NCBI GenBank assembly: GCA_964408775.1
Contig: CAYPAP010000001.1
Span: 353,839-417,838, forward strand
DNA: 64,000 nt
Reading direction: 5' to 3'
Source of the DNA: an uncultured Gammaproteobacteria bacterium
GTDB taxonomy: Bacteria; Patescibacteriota; Patescibacteriia; Patescibacteriales; UBA12465
Part shown: positions 3,979 to 63,568 of the stretch, one piece after another
How positions within the stretch are numbered: the stretch's first letter is position 1
Layout: each line of letters starts with the position of its first letter
Notes under the pieces: model-generated
Database searches by the model: none
The model's input: only the letters and a program-made list of their open reading frames with translations
What the model was told of the DNA's origin: nothing
Program-made: the position numbers and the translations under genes

Positions 3979-5625
3979 ATGAGACAAGCAACTCTAGATA
4001 TTATAGAAAATATCAAAAAAATTAAAAATGATGCCGACCTAGGTGTTTTTAAGCGTGATTTATCTAAGAAGTATGGGTTTTCTTTGTTATTGAACTCGGA
4101 TATTTTGCGAGAATATTTTTTGTTAATAAATGAAAAGAAAGTTAATGATAAATGGTTGGAAAAATATCATAATTTTTTTCTTTCTCTTTTGAAAAAGCGA
4201 GCCATTAGGACTTTATCAGGCATTGCTCCAGTAGCCGTTTTAACAAAGCCCTATCCCTGCCCGGGAGAGTGTGCTTATTGCCCCAAAAGAACCGACGTCC
4301 CGGTTAGTTATTTGCCCAATGAACCCGCCGTGATGCGAGCCTTGCGCTTAGAATTTAATCCTTATCTACAAACAATATTTCGCTTGCGCGCCCTAGAGAA
4401 TAACGGACACGAACCTAATAAAATTGAGTTAATTGTAATTGGCGGAACTTGGAGTTATTTACCTGATAAGTATAAATATTGGTATATTTTAAATTGTTTT
4501 AAGGCCGTCAATGATTATCAAAAAATAAAAGAAAAAATTATTATTACTAAAAGTGAAAAGATTGTAAAGACCAAGGAATTTTCTAAAAATATTTATTCTG
4601 AAAAATTATCCCTAAAAGATTTAAAAAAATTTTTATTACAAGAGCAAAAGAAAAACGAAAAATCTAAATATGGAATTATTGGTTTAACTTTAGAAACTAG
4701 ACCTGACTATATAGATGAGAAAGAATTGTGGCAAATGCGAGAATTGGGCTGTACTCGAGTAGAAATTGGTGTTCAGGCTGTTGATGACGATATTTTGAAG
4801 CTAAATAAGAGGGGTCATGGCGTTGATAAAATTATAGAGACAACCAAAAAATTAAAACAATTTGGTTTTAAGGTTACTTATCATTTTATGCCAGCCCTAC
4901 CTGGATCTAATCCTAAAAAAGATGTGGAGATGTATAAAAAAATATATAACAATAAAGATTTTCAACCCGATCAAATTAAATTTTATCCCACTACAGTAGT
5001 CAAAGATAGCTTGCTTTATAAATGGTGGAAGCAAGGGAAATATAAACCTTATTCTGATAAAGAATTGGAGGAAATTATTATTGAATGTAAAAAAAACACG
5101 CCAATTTATACTAGAATTATTCGTTTAATTCGCGATATTCCGGGAGAGTCAATTGAGGCTGGAAATAAAATTACTAATTTACGACAAGTGATGAAAGACA
5201 AGGGCGTGAAGTGTAATTGTATTCGTTGTCGAGAGATTAAGGGCGGAGTGATTAATAAAAGAGATTTGAGTTTAAATATTTTAAAATATCGCGCCTCAGG
5301 TGGAGATGAGTATTTTATTAGTTTTGATAGTAAGGATAAAAAAAGTTTGTATGGCTTTTGTCGTTTAAGGATTGAAAAGGGCAATAAAACTTTTCCAGCC
5401 ATAATTAGAGAACTTCATGTTTATGGTCAGTTGGTACCGATGGGGGGAAGTAAAAAAATTCAGCATAGTGGTTTAGGGAAAAGGTTGATGCAAGAAGCGG
5501 AGAAAATTACTAAGGAGGAAAAGATTAATTCCTTGGCCATTATCTCCGGCGTCGGGGTTCGAGGCTATTATCGGAAGCTGGGGTATAAACTAAAAAATAC
5601 TTATATGGTTAAAAAAATTGGTTAA
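3979..5625 (+). CDS. elp3: Elp3-like radical-SAM/GNAT tRNA wobble-uridine modification enzyme
   Basis: Radical-SAM motif CPGECAYCP, an Elp3-type central region, and a C-terminal GNAT acetyl-CoA motif (QHSGLGKRLM). Length and domain order match Elp3. Confidence 0.8.
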   Translation: MRQATLDIIENIKKIKNDADLGVFKRDLSKKYGFSLLLNSDILREYFLLINEKKVNDKWLEKYHNFFLSLLKKRAIRTLSGIAPVAVLTKPYPCPGECAYCPKRTDVPVSYLPNEPAVMRALRLEFNPYLQTIFRLRALENNGHEPNKIELIVIGGTWSYLPDKYKYWYILNCFKAVNDYQKIKEKIIITKSEKIVKTKEFSKNIYSEKLSLKDLKKFLLQEQKKNEKSKYGIIGLTLETRPDYIDEKELWQMRELGCTRVEIGVQAVDDDILKLNKRGHGVDKIIETTKKLKQFGFKVTYHFMPALPGSNPKKDVEMYKKIYNNKDFQPDQIKFYPTTVVKDSLLYKWWKQGKYKPYSDKELEEIIIECKKNTPIYTRIIRLIRDIPGESIEAGNKITNLRQVMKDKGVKCNCIRCREIKGGVINKRDLSLNILKYRASGGDEYFISFDSKDKKSLYGFCRLRIEKGNKTFPAIIRELHVYGQLVPMGGSKKIQHSGLGKRLMQEAEKITKEEKINSLAIISGVGVRGYYRKLGYKLKNTYMVKKIG

Positions 5626-41438: not shown

Positions 41439-41876
41439 ATGCCAGATAAAAAAAGAATTAAATTTGAAATAGCCACTCCAGAAAGAGTTGTTTTGAAAGA
41501 GGAAATACTTCAAGTGACTGTTCCAACTGTCGAGGGCGAAATAACAATTTTGCCCAAACATTCTCCTCTGGTTTCGGTTTTAAAGCCAGGGGTTTTGGAG
41601 TTGAAAAAAATGGATGGGAATATTGAAATTGTTTCAGTCTCTGGTGGTTTTGTTGAAGTGTTATTAAATAAAATTATTATTTTAGCTGATACCGCTGAAC
41701 GAGCCGAGGAAATTGATCTAGAAAGAGCCGAAGAAGCCAGAAAAAGAGCCGAAGAATCTCTCAAAAATTTACGAAGCATTGATTCGGTAGAGTTTGCTAA
41801 TTTATCAGCGATGTTAGAAAAGGAATTAGCCAGAACCAGATCGGCCAAAAAGTGGCGCAGTTTAAAGGGGCGGTAA
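41439..41876 (+). CDS. atpC: F-type ATP synthase subunit epsilon
   Basis: Beta-sandwich N-terminus (ILPKHSPLVSVLKPGVL) and a helical C-terminus; it is the last gene of the operon. Confidence 0.9.
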   Translation: MPDKKRIKFEIATPERVVLKEEILQVTVPTVEGEITILPKHSPLVSVLKPGVLELKKMDGNIEIVSVSGGFVEVLLNKIIILADTAERAEEIDLERAEEARKRAEESLKNLRSIDSVEFANLSAMLEKELARTRSAKKWRSLKGR

Positions 41877-41910
41877 TTATTGTCGAATACCCCTTTTTCG
41901 TCGTATAAAA

Positions 41911-41942
41911 CATAAGAAGCTAACGCAGGTTAGCTTCTTATG
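41911..41942. terminator. Perfect 14-bp hairpin between atpC and the GC-rich insert
   Basis: CATAAGAAGCTAAC / GTTAGCTTCTTATG with loop GCAG. The T-tract follows on the minus strand (TTTTAT); only TTT follows on the plus strand. Confidence 0.6.
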
Positions 41943-41945
41943 TTT

Positions 41946-42088
41946 CAGAGGTCCGAGTGGGATTCGGCCACACGTCGCTAAGCCTCGCTTGCCTGCTTTG
42001 CAGTCTTCGCTCGCTAAGGCGCTCTGGCCTGGCCTTGGCGGTGCGTCACTTCGTTCCGCACATCGCCTCCGGCTTTCGAATCCCACTC
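41946..42088 (+). repeat. GC-rich structured insert (copy 'a' of the repeat family), beginning with a 21-bp duplicate of the tRNA-Cys 3' end
   Basis: 41946-41966 is identical to 42138-42158. A 12-bp inverted repeat, GAGTGGGATTCG (41955-41966) / CGAATCCCACTC (42077-42088), closes a GC-rich core. The core holds the family hairpin GTGCG-TCACTTCGTTC-CGCAC (42041-42061). Confidence 0.75.
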
Positions 42089-42099
42089 TCTTGTCTTAT

Positions 42100-42136
42100 A
42101 AAAAAAACCAACCCAAAGCAGTTTGGATTGGTTTTT
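42100..42136 (-). terminator. Rho-independent terminator downstream of tRNA-Cys
   Basis: On the minus strand: stem ACCAATCCAAA / TTTGGGTTGGT with loop CTGC, followed by T8. Confidence 0.7.
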
Positions 42137-42140
42137 CCAG

Positions 42141-42214
42141 AGGTCCGAGTGGGATTCGAACCCACGAGTGGCGGTTTTGCAAACCGCAGTGTTAAACCAC
42201 TTCACCATCGGACC
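42141..42214 (-). tRNA. tRNA-Cys (anticodon GCA)
   Basis: Hand-folded cloverleaf: acceptor GGTCCGA/TCGGACC, anticodon stem GCGGT/ACCGC with loop TTGCAAA, T-arm GTGGG-TTCGAAT-CCCAC, and discriminator U as expected for tRNA-Cys. No CCA is encoded. Confidence 0.9.
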
Positions 42215-42337
42215 AATTTATTTTATCTATAAAGTATAATAGTATATATTATAAAAAAATGCTATATTGACAAAAAATATTAAATATGCTAAGAGTGTAA
42301 ATATAATAGCTCTTTTATTATTAACCCAAAAAGACCC

Positions 42338-43108
42338 GTGAGTAAAGTAGCGGGCACTAAGAACATGGGAAACAAGAGTTCTCAGGTTTCAGCGAACTTC
42401 AAACAAGGGATGGAGTTTTTGCGAATTTGTTTATTGGCCTTTAACAAGGCTAATCCATCAACCGAACAGGTTGATGAGCTGATTCATAATCCGGACCCGA
42501 TATATGATTGGGTTGGAGAAATGTTTGCCAAGAAATTTGACGACAACAAAAACAGTCGCCAGATTAAAGCCACTTGGCAGGGGCTCTATAAAAGATGGTT
42601 CGGACTGCAGAAAGATTTTTCTGACCTGCAGGTTCCGGAAAATTACGACCCCCGTAAACACTTTGCTGTTATCGTGGCCCAAGGGCTGACAATGAATCAG
42701 GTTGTAGTTGGTATGAAGAAGAGGTTTAAGGTCTCTTTGTATGAAGAAGATCTGGATGCTTCTGTTGTTCACAACGACAGAACCGCCGAAAACGGCGATT
42801 ACATCGTTCTGTTCAACAAAAATGTTGAAGCTGACGAGGAATTCAAAAACCTTTCAGCTAACCAGCTGAAGACCATGAGCCATGAGGGAATTACTCTGCT
42901 GGAAAGATTGCTGTTAGAGGTTCTATATTTTGACAGAACCAAAAAGCATCTGGACATCAGCAACTGGACTCTTTGTAGCGGTTCGCGTAATTCTGATGGC
43001 TATGTTCCCTTCGTCCACTGGCTTTCCAGCGATGGCAAGCTCCGCGTCTCTTGGGACGATCCTGTCTGTTCTCATGTCTTTTTGCGTTCCCGCTCAGTGG
43101 TTTCTTAA
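42338..43108 (+). CDS. Orphan protein of visibly higher GC, function unknown
   Basis: 256-aa ORF with a GTG start. Its codon usage (CTG, GGC, GAC, CGC) is unlike its neighbours. It has its own strong terminator. I recognise no motif. Confidence 0.6.
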   Translation: MSKVAGTKNMGNKSSQVSANFKQGMEFLRICLLAFNKANPSTEQVDELIHNPDPIYDWVGEMFAKKFDDNKNSRQIKATWQGLYKRWFGLQKDFSDLQVPENYDPRKHFAVIVAQGLTMNQVVVGMKKRFKVSLYEEDLDASVVHNDRTAENGDYIVLFNKNVEADEEFKNLSANQLKTMSHEGITLLERLLLEVLYFDRTKKHLDISNWTLCSGSRNSDGYVPFVHWLSSDGKLRVSWDDPVCSHVFLRSRSVVS

Positions 43109-43136
43109 TCCTTGAAACTCTGTGCTTTAACTCTTT

Positions 43137-43164
43137 GCCCCTGTTTTTAAACAGGGGCTTTTTT
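43137..43164 (+). terminator. Rho-independent terminator
   Basis: Stem GCCCCTGT / ACAGGGGC with a 6-nt loop, followed by T6. Confidence 0.8.
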
Positions 43165-43191
43165 AAATTTTAAAATAATTATTTTTTGTTC

Positions 43192-43219
43192 TTGACACTA
43201 TTCCTATTTATGCTAAAAT
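43192..43219 (+). promoter_or_regulatory. Sigma-70-like promoter of groES-groEL
   Basis: TTGACA (43192-43197), a 16-nt spacer, then TAAAAT (43214-43219), directly upstream of the CIRCE element. Confidence 0.65.
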
Positions 43220-43223
43220 GTTT

Positions 43224-43250
43224 TTAGCACTCGCTTATTAAGAGTGCTAA
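43224..43250 (+). promoter_or_regulatory. CIRCE operator (HrcA binding site)
   Basis: Exact match to the consensus TTAGCACTC-N9-GAGTGCTAA (TTAGCACTC gcttattaa GAGTGCTAA). Confidence 0.9.
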
Positions 43251-43357
43251 TAAAAAAATTATTATTTAAAATTATTGACCTATTGAACTTTTATATTCCT
43301 CTTCGAATGTGCGCAAAATAAGGTTATAAAAGTTAATATTTCAATAATATTTATTTT

Positions 43358-43648
43358 ATGAAATTAAAACCACTAAACAACAATGTAATTGTTAGGGCCT
43401 CAACCAAGGAAGAGGTCACAAAATCTGGTATAGTTTTACCAGATACTATGGATAAAGAAAAACCAGAACAGGGTGAAGTTATTGCTATTGGGCCCGGTAA
43501 ATTAACTGATACTGGCCAAAGAGTCGAGATGACTGTAAAAATTGGAGACAAAGTTGTCTTTAAAAAATATTCCCCCGATGATATTAAAATCGATGGAGAG
43601 GAATATTTAGTGATTAATGAGAATGATATTTTGGCGATCATTGAATAA
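43358..43648 (+). CDS. groES: Co-chaperonin GroES
   Basis: KPLNNNVIVRA..GIVLPDT mobile loop; 96 aa; upstream of groEL. Confidence 0.95.
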   Translation: MKLKPLNNNVIVRASTKEEVTKSGIVLPDTMDKEKPEQGEVIAIGPGKLTDTGQRVEMTVKIGDKVVFKKYSPDDIKIDGEEYLVINENDILAIIE

Positions 43649-43667
43649 CATTTATAATTAAAAATAA

Positions 43668-45335
<1,668 letters not shown>

Positions 45336-45364
45336 ATAGTATTAAAACTTTTTATTAAAAAAAG

Positions 45365-45400
45365 AAAAAATCTGGCCAATAAAACCAGGTTTTTTCTTTT
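45365..45400 (+). terminator. Terminator after groEL
   Basis: AAAAAATCTGG / CCAGGTTTTTT stem with loop CCAATAAAA, followed by a T-run. Confidence 0.55.
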
Positions 45401-45444
45401 TGGAAAATATGTTATAATGCAAATATATAATTTTTATTTTCTAT

Positions 45445-59052: not shown

Positions 59053-59889
59053 ATGGCAAAGAAACAAAAAATAAAAGTTGAAGGTATTGAAATTATTGCT
59101 TTTATCAATAATAATATTGATTATATTTCTTTGACTGATATAGCCCGCCACAAAAATTCTGCCTTTCCAGCCGATGTTGTAAAAAATTGGATGAGAAATC
59201 GCGGGACGATTGACTTTTTGGGACTATGGGAAAAACTACATAATCCAGCTTTTAAACTGGTCGAATTTGACCAGTTTAAAAATGAGGCCGGTGTTAATTC
59301 TTTTGTGTTGCCACCACAAAAATGGATAGAAAAAACTCGCGCCATTGGTTTAATTTCAAAATCCGGAAGATACGGAGGCGGTACTTTTGCGCATAAAGAC
59401 ATTGCATTTGAATTCGCCTCTTGGGTGAGCGCGGAATTTAAACTATATTTATTGGTTGAATTTCAACGACTTAAACAAGACGAAAATAGCCGCTTGAAAT
59501 TAGAATGGAATCTTCAAAGAACACTGGCGAAAATCAATTATAAGATTCATACTGATGCCATAAAAGAGAAATTAATTCCGCTCAAATTGACCAAGGAGCA
59601 GATTGCCATGGAATATGCCAACGAAGCTGACTTACTTAATGTTGCACTGTTTGGAGTAACTGCAAAGATGTGGCCAGACCAAAATTCAAAACTAAAAGGA
59701 AATATTAGGGATCATGCCTCAATTGAACAGTTGGTGGTTTTGTCTAATCTTGAAAGTATAAACGCATTATTGATTCGTGAAGGACTTTCTCAACAAGATC
59801 GAATTGTAAAATTGAACGGCACTGCGATTATCCAGATGAGATCGCTTCTAACAAGCGATGAAACAAAGAAGCTGGAATTGCCAAAATAA
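59053..59889 (+). CDS. KilA-N domain-containing DNA-binding protein (phage/mobile-element associated)
   Basis: DYISLTDIARHKN..DVVKNWMRNRGTIDFLGLWE..GRYGGGTFAHKDIAFEFASWVSAEFKLYL matches the KilA-N family as I remember it. Confidence 0.8.
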   Translation: MAKKQKIKVEGIEIIAFINNNIDYISLTDIARHKNSAFPADVVKNWMRNRGTIDFLGLWEKLHNPAFKLVEFDQFKNEAGVNSFVLPPQKWIEKTRAIGLISKSGRYGGGTFAHKDIAFEFASWVSAEFKLYLLVEFQRLKQDENSRLKLEWNLQRTLAKINYKIHTDAIKEKLIPLKLTKEQIAMEYANEADLLNVALFGVTAKMWPDQNSKLKGNIRDHASIEQLVVLSNLESINALLIREGLSQQDRIVKLNGTAIIQMRSLLTSDETKKLELPK

Positions 59890-59978
59890 AAATAATAAGG
59901 TGTTTTTTCGCGGAGCTCATCTCGTCGAATGGCGGGGTTGCGAAAGCGATTTAAATTAATTTAAAAAATGAATAGTGA

Positions 59979-60143
59979 TTTCCGGTTATTGATGTTATTG
60001 AGGTTTTGACAGGAATTAAAAGACCTGAAAAATATTGGAGTGATATTGAGAAGAGATTAAAAAATGAGAGCAATATTGAGTTGTCCGAAAAAATCGGACA
60101 ACTAAAATTAATATTTAGAGGCGGAAAGCATGAGGATGTTTAG
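59979..60143 (+). pseudogene. Fragment of a Bro-N/antirepressor-like gene
   Basis: A start-less open frame. FPVIDVIEVLTGIKRPEKYWSDIEKRLKNESNIELSEKIGQLKLIFRGGKHEDV* resembles the middle of Bro-N domain proteins (..VDVVEVLT...YW..LK.RL..EG.EL...I.QLKL...DGK..). Confidence 0.5.
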
Positions 60144-60388
60144 CGGTATTTTAACGAGAAGTGTGGGTGGGGGCTAAAATTGATTTTAGTGGATATTTTT
60201 AGTATAAGTAGATTTATAAAGAAGGAATAATTTCTTTTTGTTCGTATAATATGCAGATTTTTACTTTTTTTAGCAATAAGTTCGCATAATAACCAGTTAT
60301 ACGCAATTCAAAAAATATTTTTCTAACGGAGAATAAGGAATGATAGGCTTTCAAAGAGGAATAAATTTGATTTTTTCTTTATTTAATG

Positions 60389-60468
60389 AGGGGGACAATA
60401 TGGTATTTTCTCCACTTCGTTGCGAAAACAATTTATTTATAAATTGAAAAACATAACAAAACTTATAT
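60389..60468 (+). repeat. Degenerate repeat copy 'f' upstream of the SDR gene
   Basis: Holds the family hairpin TTTTC-TCCACTTCGTTGC-GAAAA (60406-60428). A decayed end reads AAAAC-TTATAT (about 60458-60468), against the family end AAACGTTAWAT. Confidence 0.5.
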
Positions 60469-60492
60469 AATACAAATAACTTTTAATTTATT

Positions 60493-61293
60493 ATGGAGAA
60501 TAATATGAAACCACTTGAAGGAAAAATTGCACTTGTGACTGGTGGAACCCGCAATGTTGGGAAAGGAATCGCTATAGGCTTAGGCGAAGCAGGTGCTACT
60601 GTCTATGTAACCGGAAGAAGTATTACCGACAAAGATGTTAAAGGAATTACAACTGCTGGTGGAAAAGGTATTGCCTTAGTATGCAATCATGAAAATGACG
60701 ATGAAGTAAAAAAGATATTTGAACTTATCAAAGAAAAAGAAGGAAAACTGGATATCTTGGTTAACAATGCTTGGGGTGGTTATAATCGTTTACGCAACAG
60801 AACAAAATATAAAGGTTTTAAGTGGAAAGAATTTTTTTGGAAACAACCCTTGGAATTATGGGATGAAATGAACAATGTTGGTGTTCGTTCAAATTTTGTC
60901 GCAAACGTTTTTGCTTCCGAAATGATGATTAAACAAAAACAAGGATTGATTGTAAATATTTCTTTTTACGCCAGTCGCAAATATTATGGAAATGTAATTT
61001 ATGGCATTGCAAAGGCGGCTGTTAATAAAATGTCTATGGATATGGCAGTCGAACTTAAACCACACAATATTGCTTGCGTTTCATTATATCCAGGATATAT
61101 TGACGACAATAAAAAGAAACCTAACCCAAAAAAAGAATCTTCGCAATTCGTTGGAAGAGCAATAGTCAATTTGGCTTCTGATAAAAATATAATGTCAAAA
61201 ACAGGTAGTATCTTAGCCGCTGCCGAATTGGCGAAAGAGTATGACTTTAAAGATATTGATGGCACTCAACCTATACCATATGACACAATGTAA
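60493..61293 (+). CDS. Short-chain dehydrogenase/reductase (SDR) family oxidoreductase
   Basis: ALVTGGTRNVGKGIA (TGxxxGxG), NNAW, and the catalytic YGIAKAA (YxxxK). Confidence 0.85.
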   Translation: MENNMKPLEGKIALVTGGTRNVGKGIAIGLGEAGATVYVTGRSITDKDVKGITTAGGKGIALVCNHENDDEVKKIFELIKEKEGKLDILVNNAWGGYNRLRNRTKYKGFKWKEFFWKQPLELWDEMNNVGVRSNFVANVFASEMMIKQKQGLIVNISFYASRKYYGNVIYGIAKAAVNKMSMDMAVELKPHNIACVSLYPGYIDDNKKKPNPKKESSQFVGRAIVNLASDKNIMSKTGSILAAAELAKEYDFKDIDGTQPIPYDTM

Positions 61294-61430
61294 GATTTTA
61301 ATAATGAGTTTTAAAAAATGAAATTCACCCCTAACCCCTCTTTCATTTTTCAAAACGGAAAAAATCAAATTTATAATAATTTAGGAGAGCCTGTCATAAT
61401 GAGTAAAAACGAAAAATATTTTTTGAACTC

Positions 61431-61576
61431 ACTCCGCTACGCTCCGTGCCACGCTGCGCTCTCCTCCTTTCAGTCGTCGGGGCGTATAACAGCGGATATG
61501 AGGTTCGCCCATCGGCTCGGGGCTCACCCAAATTGCTCACTTCGTTCGCAACTTCTCATATCCGCAAACGTTAAAT
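61431..61576 (+). repeat. Structured GC-rich repeat copy 'b' (attC-like)
   Basis: Blocks in order: ACTCCGC, CCACGCTGCG, GTATAAC (61484-61490), GCGGATATGAG (61492-61502), GCTCGG, CCCAAATT, hairpin TTGC-TCACTTCGTTC-GCAA (61533-61551), CTCATATCCGC (61555-61565), AAAC, GTTAAAT (61570-61576). Confidence 0.75.
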
Positions 61577-61593
61577 GAAATAATAAAAAATTT

Positions 61594-61890
61594 ATGGCTA
61601 TTGAAGTTATTTTTTATCTCGTAATATTTATATGTATCTGTGGTTTGGCATATGCAATGTATGAGGTTGTAAAAAATAAGGATTATTATACGCCAAAACA
61701 AATCTGGGACAGAATAACAGAAGAAAAAGAAAGTAAAAGTCTAAGTAGTTTGCCTTTTAGACTGCTAGGACTGAAGGTTCCGAATATTACATCTAGAAAA
61801 TTTGATGCAATTTTTTTTCTGACAGTATTATTATTATTTATAATCATCATAATTATTTCAGCAGTAATGATAATAATTGAAAAGCTATAG
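61594..61890 (+). CDS. Small two-helix membrane protein, function unknown
   Basis: 98-aa ORF with hydrophobic helices at both ends. It starts 17 nt after repeat 'b'. Confidence 0.5.
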   Translation: MAIEVIFYLVIFICICGLAYAMYEVVKNKDYYTPKQIWDRITEEKESKSLSSLPFRLLGLKVPNITSRKFDAIFFLTVLLLFIIIIIISAVMIIIEKL

Positions 61891-61962
61891 ATCTTTTATT
61901 ATATTATAATAAGAGTGTACATTTGGTTGTATATTTTACACAAAAACTTCCATCTATATTTA

Positions 61963-62008
61963 CCTCCGCTACGCTATGGCAAACATCAGATATGCTGAAA
62001 CGTTAAAT
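61963..62008 (+). repeat. Internally deleted repeat copy 'c'
   Basis: The family 5' block CTCCGCTACGCT (identical to copy b) is joined to the 3' end ..AGATATGCTGAAACGTTAAAT (GTTAAAT at 62002-62008). The central ~100 nt is missing. Confidence 0.65.
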
Positions 62009-62068
62009 GAAATTAAAAACCAGTCCTAAGAACGATAGATTTTTATAAACTTAATAATTAAATAAGTT

Positions 62069-62386
62069 ATGCCAAACGAATTTCAAAAAAATGTGAAAAA
62101 GTTTATGGATGATAGTGCCATGAACAATCCTGTTGAAAATAGGATGCTAGATTTAGTAGATGAAATTGGAGAAGTAGCAAAAGAAATCAATAAAATGTCC
62201 CAATATGGCACAAAAGAACCAAAGTTTAGAGAAGAAATAAGAACAGAAATTGGAGACGCTTTTTATTCTTTAATAACTGTTGCCAATTACTATGATGTTG
62301 ATATGCTTGATTCACTTGATAAAGTTATAAAAAAATACAAGAAGAGAATTGAAAAAGGTGGACATGCTGGCTCTGAGAATGATTAA
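62069..62386 (+). CDS. MazG-like nucleoside triphosphate pyrophosphohydrolase (small all-alpha type)
   Basis: LVDEIGEVAKEI ... EIGDAFYSLITVANYY (ExxE...ExxD metal motifs); 105 aa. Confidence 0.75.
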   Translation: MPNEFQKNVKKFMDDSAMNNPVENRMLDLVDEIGEVAKEINKMSQYGTKEPKFREEIRTEIGDAFYSLITVANYYDVDMLDSLDKVIKKYKKRIEKGGHAGSEND

Positions 62387-62404
62387 CGGGCTGGTTTTTA
62401 ACTT

Positions 62405-62559
62405 GCTCCGTTTTACTCCGCACCACGCTGCGTTCTCACTCCACTACGTTCAGTTCGGGCCACTTAACAAGGGATAAAAGGAAAATCACTCAGCTCGGCA
62501 TTTTCCCAAATTTTCTTTCACTTCGTTCCAGAAAACTTCTCATATCCCTAACGTTATAT
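62405..62559 (+). repeat. Structured GC-rich repeat copy 'd' (attC-like)
   Basis: Same ordered blocks as copy b: ACTCCGC, CCACGCTGCG, ACTTAAC (62462-62468), GGGATAAAAG, hairpin GGAAAAT..ATTTTCC, CCCAAATT, hairpin TTTTCT-TTCACTTCGTTCC-AGAAAA (62511-62535), CTCATATCCC, TAAC, GTTATAT (62553-62559). Confidence 0.75.
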
Positions 62560-62622
62560 TTAATTTGAGTCGTGGCAAAACAATAGTAAAACTTTTAAAT
62601 TTTAATTTTTTACCAATTTAAT

Positions 62623-63168
62623 ATGACAAATGTAACTTTTATAACCGGAAATCAAAGCAAGGCAGATTACTTATCCAAATATTTAGGATATCCAGTAGAT
62701 CATGTAAAGCTTGATTTGGACGAGATTCAATCTACCGATCTAAATGAGATCGTTGAGCATAAAGTCAAGCAAGCATACGATTTAATACAAAGACCTGTAA
62801 TTGTAGAAGATGTTTCTTTGGAGTTTGAAGCTCTTGGTGGCTTGCCAGGTCCTTTTATAAAATTCTTTGTAGAAAAAGTTCCATTTGAAACAATCTGCTC
62901 AATGATTGGCGGCGGATTAACAAGAAAGGCTACAGCAAGGTGTGTTTTTGGTTATTTTGATGGCGAAGATTTAGAATTGTTTGAAGGTAGTCTGGGTGGT
63001 GAAATCGCTGAAAAGCCTTCAGGAAATAATGGTTATGGATGGGATAAAATCTTTATTCCAGAGGGTTATACTATTACAAGAGCATCACTTGACGAAGAGG
63101 GGAACCAAAAAACATATTTGAAAGTTAAGCCATTTTCTAAATTGAAAAAATATTTGGAATCGAAATGA
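62623..63168 (+). CDS. Non-canonical purine NTP pyrophosphatase (HAM1/ITPase/RdgB family)
   Basis: VTFITGNQSK and VEDVSLEFEALGGLPGPFIKFF, with GYGWDKIF. It ends at TGA. Confidence 0.85.
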   Translation: MTNVTFITGNQSKADYLSKYLGYPVDHVKLDLDEIQSTDLNEIVEHKVKQAYDLIQRPVIVEDVSLEFEALGGLPGPFIKFFVEKVPFETICSMIGGGLTRKATARCVFGYFDGEDLELFEGSLGGEIAEKPSGNNGYGWDKIFIPEGYTITRASLDEEGNQKTYLKVKPFSKLKKYLESK

Positions 63169-63224
63169 TAAAAAAGGTAAAAGTTTTGTAATTAATAAAT
63201 AAATTCCACGACTCAAACTCTGAA

Positions 63225-63368
63225 ATTTTCCTTCGGCACGTTGCACTAAATTTTAGCCCTACGGTGAATGTAGCAGGGTTTATGAGGAAATTTGCTCGGT
63301 TCGCCGCTCACCCAAATTTTTCCTACACTTCGTTCCAGAAAAATTTCGTATATCTCTGACATTATCGG
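63225..63368 (+). repeat. Degenerate repeat copy 'e'
   Basis: GCTCGG, GCTCACCCAAATT and the hairpin ATTTTTC-CTACACTTCGTTCCA-GAAAAAT (63316-63344) are retained. Both terminal boxes are decayed (GTGAATGT and GACATTATC). A further AACGTTCAAT lies at about 63475-63484. Confidence 0.6.
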
Positions 63369-63568
63369 AAATAGCATATATTTTTCTCGGAGATTGGAAG
63401 GATTTTGTTCCGCAAGAAAACCAAAAAAGCGAAACTATGAATCAAGAAGTGTTGGTGCTAACAAAAAAATAAAAAACGTTCAATTACACTAAGGAGTAAA
63501 AAATGTTTACTACATCCGATATGAAAGAAATTCCTTATAAAATTATTAATTATTAAGTTTTTCACAAA

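Follow-up and report, generated by a model that had tools for sequence, protein, structure and literature searches.

A gene-less, structured 192-bp insertion at the 3' end of tRNA-Cys in Patescibacteria: a candidate non-autonomous integrative unit

Introduction

Elements which integrate into tRNA genes can accumulate at their target by accretion, as has been described for the tycheposons (10.1101/2020.12.28.424599). Accretion and tandem arrangement are also described for the cis-mobilizable elements (CIMEs), which by definition retain both attachment sites, attL and attR, and have lost their recombination genes (PMC5704250). For the Patescibacteria (CPR), bacteria with tiny genomes, very little is known about how DNA is gained and lost. 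Here a locus is described at which a tRNA gene of this group serves as a site-specific insertion hot spot. It lies in a stretch of 64,000 nucleotides, called the window in the following (contig CAYPAP010000001.1 of assembly GCA_964408775.1, positions 353,839 to 417,838), between the convergent genes for AtpC (41439-41876, plus strand) and tRNA-Cys (minus strand). The element in question, called the unit, is an insertion of 192 bp with no genes of its own, bounded by a duplicated tRNA-Cys 3' end and filled with GC-rich, structured DNA.

The Duplicated tRNA-Cys 3' End and the Interval It Bounds

The 21-mer CAGAGGTCCGAGTGGGATTCG is found at 41946-41966 and again at 42138-42158. It has exactly two copies; no third one was found even with three mismatches allowed, and none would be expected by chance. 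By weaker similarity the repeat can be extended to 32 nucleotides with 88% identity (41943-41974 versus 42135-42166). The second copy belongs to an intact gene for tRNA-Cys(GCA) on the minus strand, which ARAGORN places at 42140/1-42214 and which scores 62.1 bits with the tRNA model RF00005 of Rfam. This copy runs from C56 of the T-loop (CGAAU) through the 3' strands of the T-stem and of the acceptor stem and the discriminator U to a trailer of three nucleotides. As the trailer in the repeat reads CUG and not CCA, the 21-mer was duplicated as genomic DNA and not copied from the mature tRNA, and on the same ground an origin as a retro-copy or primer-binding site was rejected.

The GC content of the interval is 60-66% over 41916-42105 as compared to 34.7% for the whole window and forms the GC peak of the 64 kb. 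Within it the arms GAGTGGGATTCG and CGAATCCCACTC form a perfect inverted repeat of 12 bp. The right arm takes part in a second perfect inverted repeat, of 14 bp (42075-42088), with the true tRNA copy at 42147-42160. A hairpin GTGCG-TCACTTCGTTC-CGCAC is located at 42041-42061, and two strong terminator hairpins lie at the flanks. T_A has a stem of 17 bp and a folding energy of -24 kcal/mol (z = -7 to -8). T_B yields -18.7 kcal/mol on the minus strand, on which it folds better, and is followed there by eight U. The duplication with its second copy in tRNA-Cys, the GC-rich DNA between the copies, the inverted repeat built from T-arm sequence, the GTGCG hairpin and the two flanking hairpins had all been pointed out in a preliminary description of this stretch, and each of them is confirmed. 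Since independent ENA, Logan and JGI assemblies contain the identical sequence, the unit is not an assembly artefact.

A credible open reading frame was not found in the unit, and its reading frames are not conserved between genomes. The frames at 41877-42086 (minus), 41957-42232 (plus) and 42014-42208 (minus) were dismissed as spurious, as they overlap the tRNA or the terminators and a 1-nt indel separates the window from a close relative (L004).

Empty and Occupied Sites in Related Genomes

The interval from atpC to tRNA-Cys was compared in relatives whose AtpC is 98% to 68% identical to that of the window, and public collections were scanned for displaced tRNA-Cys 3' ends with no tRNA following. 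The loci obtained are referred to by an L and a number; the relatives of AtpC carry the labels Patescibacteria, Falkowbacteria or Moranbacteria. In the outgroups (AtpC 74% and 68% identical; L038/L040 and L034-L037) atpC, one bidirectional terminator and tRNA-Cys follow each other with neither a unit nor an arm motif, from which it follows that the unit was gained in the window. The unit is also lacking in L012-L014, L009 and L007, the last of these in spite of an AtpC 97% identical to that of the window. Compared to these loci the window shows a clean insertion of 192 bp bounded by the 21-mer, with both flanks conserved: T_A and the 21-mer on one side, the remaining tRNA on the other. In L012, L007 and L009 T_A stands directly against tRNA-Cys, as does a related hairpin in the outgroup L038. 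An uninterrupted junction of atpC and tRNA-Cys, the comparison suggested together with the preliminary description, thus exists in these three loci and in the outgroups.

Homologous units are located at this junction in six or more further lineages of Patescibacteria (L004/L005, L015, L016, L017, L018, and L019); a truncated copy is present in L026 and a decayed one in L030. Every unit is made up of the 21-mer, a GC-rich body, the inverted arm together with a leader, and T_B, a terminator conserved as a unit component in L004 and L015-L019. Among intact units the 21-mer does not vary. Several loci contain more than one copy. L017 has two non-identical units in tandem and an older partial one adjoining T_A, L016 has one unit and a truncated older one, and L004 has two units where L005, with the same AtpC, has one, a difference which could be due to assembly collapse. 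On the atpC side of T_A the window retains the degenerate remains of an older unit (Table 1). The region 41856-41906 gives a weak match on the minus strand to the covariance model introduced below, and homologous remnants adjoin T_A in L012 and L007. In L004, L015, and L030 an older, different GC-rich hairpin is found in addition, behind a further mutated tRNA 3' fragment. The copies farthest from the tRNA are the most decayed, a pattern consistent with the newest copy being nearest to the tRNA. The copy patterns of L017, L004/L005, and L016 match the accretion described for tycheposons and CIMEs.

In other relatives the interval holds genes of toxin-antitoxin or defence type instead, namely NTP_transf_2 pairs, AbiEii, and Gp49/HTH. 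This varied cargo, together with the units, marks the DNA downstream from the 3' end of tRNA-Cys as an insertion hot spot.

Some further observations concern the loci collected. Accessory modules are located at 4588-5423 of L007, in L009-L011, in L018, at 3512-4370 of L028/L029, and at 4904-5616 of L017, with Fic beyond the tRNA. The records of L015 (CAZILW010000014.1) and L018 (CAYYLI010000037.1) are labelled 'uncultured Gammaproteobacteria bacterium'. Since in both the atp operon, the tRNA-Cys locus and the unit agree with the Patescibacteria clade, these labels are probably wrong. L020, L022, and L023 were discarded as chance matches in high-GC coding regions.

A Conserved and Covarying Fold

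The consensus fold calculated from eight distinct aligned units with MAFFT and RNAalifold is a three-way junction. It is closed by helix P1, in which the tRNA-derived 12-mer pairs with its inverted copy over 12 bp. The stems of P2, which contain an AU bulge, covary between genomes (GGCG/CGCC versus GCCC/GGGC), and P3 switches from GGCCA/UGGCC to GGUCG/UGACC. P5 extends P3 by pairing two copies of the conserved motif CUUAGCGA and switches from AGC/GCU to AGU/ACU, and P4 is a hairpin of variable length. On inspection by eye, neither a kink-turn in P2 nor a cloverleaf-like interpretation of P1 was upheld. In a model-based alignment of 11 copies 92.9% of the cells are paired. Fourteen pairs had changed on both sides, as compared to 6.6 +/- 1.7 in shuffled alignments, none out of 500 reaching this number, and to at most five in slid controls. 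This alignment was fitted to the model and hence favours the structure; the independent result from MAFFT and RNAalifold agrees with it. P1 changes on the non-tRNA arm only, and its changes are never compensated.

Between genomes the units are 68-96% identical, compared to 51-81% for the adjacent intergenic DNA, and they are mosaics of exchanged modules. The pattern of substitutions suggests that the fold of the unit is under selection. A close look at the tip of P2 is possible in L004, whose AtpC is 98% identical to that of the window and whose unit shows only about three changes outside the loop. Compared to window positions 42046-42056, both pairs of the 2-bp tip helix are swapped in the loop TCGTTTCACTC of L004 (about 4725-4735 and 4915-4925) by four transitions. 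By this comparison the hairpin tip evolves rapidly but under constraint.

A second GC-rich hairpin module, TCGCGTAAAA...CACGCGAC, was noticed both on its own, following a displaced and mutated 3' fragment of tRNA-Cys (4508-4580 of L004; about 3120-3170 of L015, as reverse complement), and as the enlarged P4 hairpin within the units of L015, L016, and L026. It behaves as an exchangeable module.

A covariance model of the unit, R1, gives 177 bits for the minus strand of 41946-42099. In the 64 kb window and 192 kb of related loci it matches tRNA-Cys loci only, always on the tRNA strand.

These data bear on two simple explanations. The preliminary description had offered the scar or minimal remnant of an element integrated into tRNA-Cys as its first reading. 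Integration as such is upheld by the empty junctions, by a repeat reaching from the T-loop to past the 3' end, and by the restored tRNA. An inert scar of the CIME type would be what remains of a larger, integrase-bearing element which lost everything except its two att-proximal arms. Direct repeats, a restored tRNA, a lack of genes between the repeats and a hot spot which carries toxin-antitoxin or defence cargo in relatives would all fit such a history. A unit of about 190 bp with the same boundaries recurs, however, in at least seven lineages, to which independent decay would not converge. Compensatory changes in the helices and a conservation better than that of the flanking intergenic DNA are further arguments against it, and a mere scar is quite improbable. 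The second explanation, a decayed tandem duplicate of tRNA-Cys, would account for the 21-mer being tRNA sequence and for weak similarity over eight more bases, five of which match. Neither ARAGORN nor the Rfam tRNA model detects a second tRNA-like gene, however, and a 5' acceptor strand, a D arm and an anticodon arm are missing. The left arm matches the complement of the T-arm 3' half exactly and does not repeat the 5' half, and the body has been conserved in another fold. A tRNA pseudogene is by these results effectively refuted.

The Possibility of an RNA Product

A small RNA transcribed from the minus strand had been among the earlier suggestions. In its present form this explanation assumes a gene on the tRNA strand for an RNA of about 145-155 nt, from about 42099 to 41946 and ending at T_A, which would be transcribed either by read-through from the promoter of tRNA-Cys or from a weak start in the leader with a -10 element only. 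Its 3' end would re-use the 3' strand of the tRNA-Cys T-stem and acceptor, the trailer and the terminator after a tandem duplication of the tRNA 3' region, and the direct repeat would be a by-product kept identical by selection or gene conversion. The conserved and covarying fold speaks for this, as do the invariant junction nucleotides GAAAGCCGGAG, GAGGCC, and CUUAGCGAC, the purine-rich triloops of the minus strand (GAA or AAA) and the terminator which follows every unit on that strand. The minus-strand fold yields -88.8 kcal/mol (z = -8.3) and is somewhat stabler than that of the plus strand, and the unit is more conserved than neighbouring intergenic DNA.

On the other side, no promoter-like site was found preceding the unit on either strand. 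The tRNA-Cys promoter is the sole promoter-like site which could drive minus-strand transcription into the unit, and the strong T_B with its eight U stands between the unit and the tRNA. Wobble pairs name no strand either, the counts of G-U and A-C being 5 and 4 in intact units. Close relatives lack the unit (L007) or have one or two copies, unlike what would be expected of a needed RNA gene. The changes in P1 break pairs on the non-tRNA side without compensation, and an identical loop in cassette-associated repeats, described in the next section, would be left unexplained. The Rfam search proposed earlier yielded nothing but tRNA at the locus. No match to Rfam 15, the families of which include tRNA-like RNAs, tmRNA, ribozymes and group I/II introns, was obtained for 41946-42099 at E <= 10, the scan of the window gave tRNA only, and no family beyond tRNA was found in the units of six relatives or in the array at 59.8-63.5 kb. 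In sum, an RNA gene is a rather unlikely explanation. Introns are known in tRNA genes of Patescibacteria (PMC13011429). A group I intron was rejected here, as those known from Patescibacteria tRNA genes interrupt the anticodon loop and far exceed the unit in size, and no Rfam intron matched.

Relation to attC-Like Repeats at 59-63 kb

The 11-nt loop TCACTTCGTTC of the unit (42046-42056) recurs identically in the window at 61537-61547 and 62518-62528, with one mismatch at 63325-63335, and as CACTTCGTT at 60413-60421. It always lies within hairpins, the stems of which differ and covary. The distant copies belong to an array at 59053-63400, between topA/KilA-N and genes for aminoacyl-tRNA synthetases, with repeats at about 60400-60440, 61410-61580, 61950-62010, 62390-62560, and 63200-63370; it continues in L032 to about 11500. 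Its reading frames are small and on the same strand (KilA-N, SDR, an 86-aa frame, a 98-aa membrane protein, MazG, Ham1, and a 177-aa frame), and most of them precede a GC-richer structured repeat. Two of the repeats, 61484-61576 and 62462-62559, carry boxes similar to RYYYAAC...GTTRRRY around a folded stem. Their bottom strands read ATTTAAC-GTTT-[11-bp stem ...]-T-GTTATAC and ATATAAC-GTTA-[7-bp stem ...]-T-GTTAAGT, and the bottom strands of the 61-62 kb repeats fold better than the top strands. No integrase was found in the array and no IntI in the window or in L032, nor within 10 kb of either locus. In sequence it resembles an integron-type cassette array that lacks an integrase, that is, a cluster of attC sites lacking integron-integrases (CALIN), in a Patescibacteria genome.

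The unit has in common with these repeats a closing stem of 11-12 bp, a hairpin near the 3' arm, a spacing of about 4 nt, a GTYWWAT box, the strand polarity and the loop. It differs from them in that a pair of R''/R' boxes is missing. There is a weak R'-like GTCTTAT at 42093-42099, the leader in which it lies weakly resembling an integron R' box by sequence, and the other end is occupied by the tRNA acceptor strand. No cassette reading frame precedes the unit in the window.

A folded-strand recombination site of the integron attC or CTX phage kind, distantly related to the 59-63 kb repeats, has consequently to be weighed. Single-stranded P1 would present a duplex copy of the tRNA T-arm and acceptor to a recombinase, and the 192-nt unit would be a cassette without reading frame. 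The identical loop within covarying stems, the common layout and the attC-like character of the 61-62 kb repeats (boxes, position after small same-strand frames, better folding of the bottom strand) point in this direction. C-GAA-G loops, of the sort which the tip of P2 forms on the minus strand as a triloop, are a very stable type of DNA mini-hairpin. The conservation of the fold without strand-specific wobble pairs would also fit, and single-stranded intermediates would avoid the problem of a very small circle. Opposed to this are the failure of R1 to detect the 61-63 kb repeats, the missing second R box with the tRNA acceptor strand in its place, the single recombinase half-site which P1 provides and the lack of an IntI-like gene near both loci. 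Integron recombination, moreover, makes no 21-bp direct repeats unless the element already has the 21-mer. All things considered, such a site is unlikely. The earlier suggestion of a small element belonging to the same family as the 61-63 kb repeats survives as regards a non-autonomous element specific for tRNA-Cys; membership in one family is not supported, the 11-nt loop and the layout being what the two share.

A speculative extension, and one that we consider improbable to about the same degree, is that a single undescribed recombination system of Patescibacteria has two branches, the unit being one and the attC-like repeats the other. Both would be cassettes, with or without genes, and one trans-acting recombinase would read their folded single strands through the hairpin tip which they share. 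In the branch at tRNA-Cys, target sequence would have been used to rebuild the closing helix, the fold would thereby offer a duplex which mimics the tRNA gene, and the tRNA 3' end would be the landing site.

Interpretation

The explanation favoured is that the 192 bp at 41967-42158 (or, equivalently, 41946-42137) are a lineage-specific, non-autonomous integrative unit without reading frame, inserted into tRNA-Cys by recombination of the tyrosine-integrase type; we assign it a probability of roughly one half. Site-specific recombination would have occurred at the segment from the T-loop to the 3' end, with the 21-mer as core and by way of an excised intermediate. A layout from within the T-loop to past the 3' end is reportedly that of the T-loop class of tRNA attachment sites, as Williams is said to have set out in 2002. 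The unit's own 21-nt copy of the tRNA 3' end would complete the functional tRNA, with its own terminator T_B just behind, and the original 3' end together with T_A would be shifted towards atpC. The tRNA gene is indeed intact after the insertion and receives from the unit a terminator optimised for the minus strand. Repeated events, or unequal recombination between 21-mers, would build the tandem arrays. Since no recombinase was found, it would have to act on the unit in trans, and the fold would be either a cis-acting recombination structure of the element or an RNA product.

Several points weigh against this explanation, the most serious being that neither a recombinase nor an autonomous partner turned up in the collections scanned. 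Presence and absence among close relatives are no proof of insertion, because recombination between the 21-mers would precisely regenerate the empty site; the argument for insertion therefore rests on the outgroups and on the two terminators, T_A versus T_B. A double-stranded circle of 192 bp is a poor substrate for a classical integrase, and the copy numbers of L004 and L005 carry the reservation made above. An integrase, for which a search had been proposed at the outset, was found by Pfam neither in ten candidate reading frames of the window nor in eight near the two loci, nor in the Pfam tables and reading frame lists of the neighbours at about 15 related loci. An autonomous element with a displaced junction did not turn up in 185,579 species-representative genomes, JGI metagenome contigs, or IMG/VR. 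The scans for displaced junctions, which did not cover the whole genomes of the carriers, returned gene-less units only. In viral contigs the single match of the 17-mer was a chance one in a high-GC phage, and the arm-R pattern was not matched. Finally, an att site needs no covarying hairpins, and the conserved fold therefore points to an additional function, either as an RNA product or as a folded-DNA recombination structure, neither of which a double-stranded att site requires.

Taken together, the earlier interpretation of the locus is partly supported. The unit belongs to a previously undescribed and unannotated family, which in kind is a tRNA-targeting integrative element in miniature, structured and gene-less form. 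The hot spot at tRNA-Cys holds either toxin-antitoxin and defence genes or this conserved unit of about 190 bp, which multiplies in tandem while encoding no recombinase itself. A mobile unit would rank among the smallest integrative elements known and would point to a recombinase acting in trans, with a folded-strand mechanism as a further possibility. An RNA, on the other hand, would represent a new class of structured RNAs tied to a tRNA gene. If a system with two branches were true, an integron-like and CTX-like insertion system aimed at a tRNA gene would exist in bacteria with ultra-small genomes.

Organization of the Locus and Its Neighbourhood

The features of the locus are collected in Table 1.

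Table 1: Features of the tRNA-Cys locus, in window coordinates.
Feature	Position	Strand	Description
Degenerate remnant of an older unit	41883-41906		Arm-R-like TCGAATACCCC and leader GTCGTAT between atpC stop codon and T_A; resembles 42075-42099
Terminator T_A	41908-41945		Perfect hairpin of 17 bp between A and T tracts; bidirectional atpC/tRNA-Cys terminator, here displaced from the tRNA
Repeat copy 1	41946-41966	minus	Displaced tRNA-Cys 3' end; distal junction of the 192-bp insertion in the alignment
P1 left arm	41955-41966		GAGTGGGATTCG, within repeat copy 1
GC-rich body	41967-42076		Helices P3 and P5, variable hairpin P4, P2 hairpin; from consensus fold, covariation and composition
Internal direct repeat	41975-41995 and 42011-42031		TCGCTAAG..., within the GC-rich body
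P4 hairpin	41993-42002		CTGC-TTT-GCAG; variable
P2 hairpin	42032-42073		GCC/GGC, GGCG/CGCC, AT bulge, GTGCG/CGCAC; loop TCACTTCGTTC (42046-42056) with inner 2-bp helix
P1 right arm	42077-42088		CGAATCCCACTC; tRNA-Cys segment of T-loop, T-stem and acceptor in inverted copy
Leader/spacer	42089-42102		TCTTGTCTTATAAA; conserved in the family (GTCTTAT, GTTATAT or GTCATAT)
Terminator T_B	42103-42136	minus	17-bp stem including one G-U pair, then 8 U; now terminates tRNA-Cys
Repeat copy 2	42138-42158	minus	Functional tRNA-Cys 3' end
tRNA-Cys(GCA)	42141-42214	minus	Intact; integration target; ARAGORN, Rfam RF00005
Promoter-like site of tRNA-Cys	42246-42273	minus	TTGTCA-16-TAATAT; conserved in relatives

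The loop of T_A is reverse-complemented between genomes (CGCAGG versus CCTGCG; window 41925-41928 versus about 5566-5571 of L007) with the 17-bp stem unchanged, a flip of the hairpin loop. Behind tRNA-Cys the window continues with a reading frame of no known function, groES and groEL. The 3' end of this frame of no known function, of 256 aa (42338-43108), is unusually GC- and T-rich for the genome (42966-43105, about 55% GC). An inversion between the arms, which would have moved this frame to L026, was considered and rejected, as the 256-aa frame of L026 is not homologous. The frame of no known function, groES and groEL are absent between tRNA-Cys and coaD in L004, the AtpC of which is 98% identical (5084-5760 of L004 versus window 42215-45440); by this comparison synteny 5' of tRNA-Cys is variable as well.

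Comparison with Known Systems

The closest resemblance is to the tyrosine-integrase elements which target tRNA genes (T-loop class), such as the tycheposons of Prochlorococcus. In both cases the tRNA from within the T-loop to the 3' end makes up the direct repeat, the tRNA is regenerated by the copy brought along, newer insertions displace older ones, and partial tRNA repeats and decayed remnants accumulate (10.1101/2020.12.28.424599). The unit differs from them by its length of 192 bp, the lack of an integrase or any reading frame, the lack of a cognate autonomous element among the matches, its conserved GC-rich fold and its Patescibacteria host. With the CIMEs of Firmicutes it shares flanks of attL/attR type, the lack of an integrase, the position at the 3' end of the target gene and the tandem arrangement (PMC5704250). 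CIMEs, however, are decayed integrative and conjugative or integrative and mobilizable elements of kilobase size without a conserved structure, whereas the unit is small, structured and conserved across species.

Integron attC sites and CALINs resemble the unit as imperfect palindromes which fold when single-stranded, with structure conserved over sequence and the size of a cassette without reading frame, and the hairpin loop is shared with the attC-like repeats after small reading frames at 59-63 kb. In contrast to these, the unit has no R''/R' pair and no IntI, is flanked by 21-bp repeats of a tRNA end and is located beside a tRNA and not in a cassette array. The integrative mobile elements exploiting Xer recombination (IMEX), of which CTX phage with its folded single-stranded attP mimicking dif is an example, likewise contain two inverted copies of their target which fold to a duplex identical to it, form tandem arrays and encode no recombinase; here, however, the target is a tRNA gene and not dif, the stem offers one half-site, and there is no phage genome. 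Miniature inverted-repeat transposable elements (MITEs) and doublets of repetitive extragenic palindromes (REPINs), finally, are like the unit short non-coding hairpins with terminal inverted repeats in intergenic positions beside terminators. The unit is set apart from both by its occurrence at one locus per genome (256 kb examined), by the lack of a short target-site duplication, and by an inverted repeat which is tRNA sequence.

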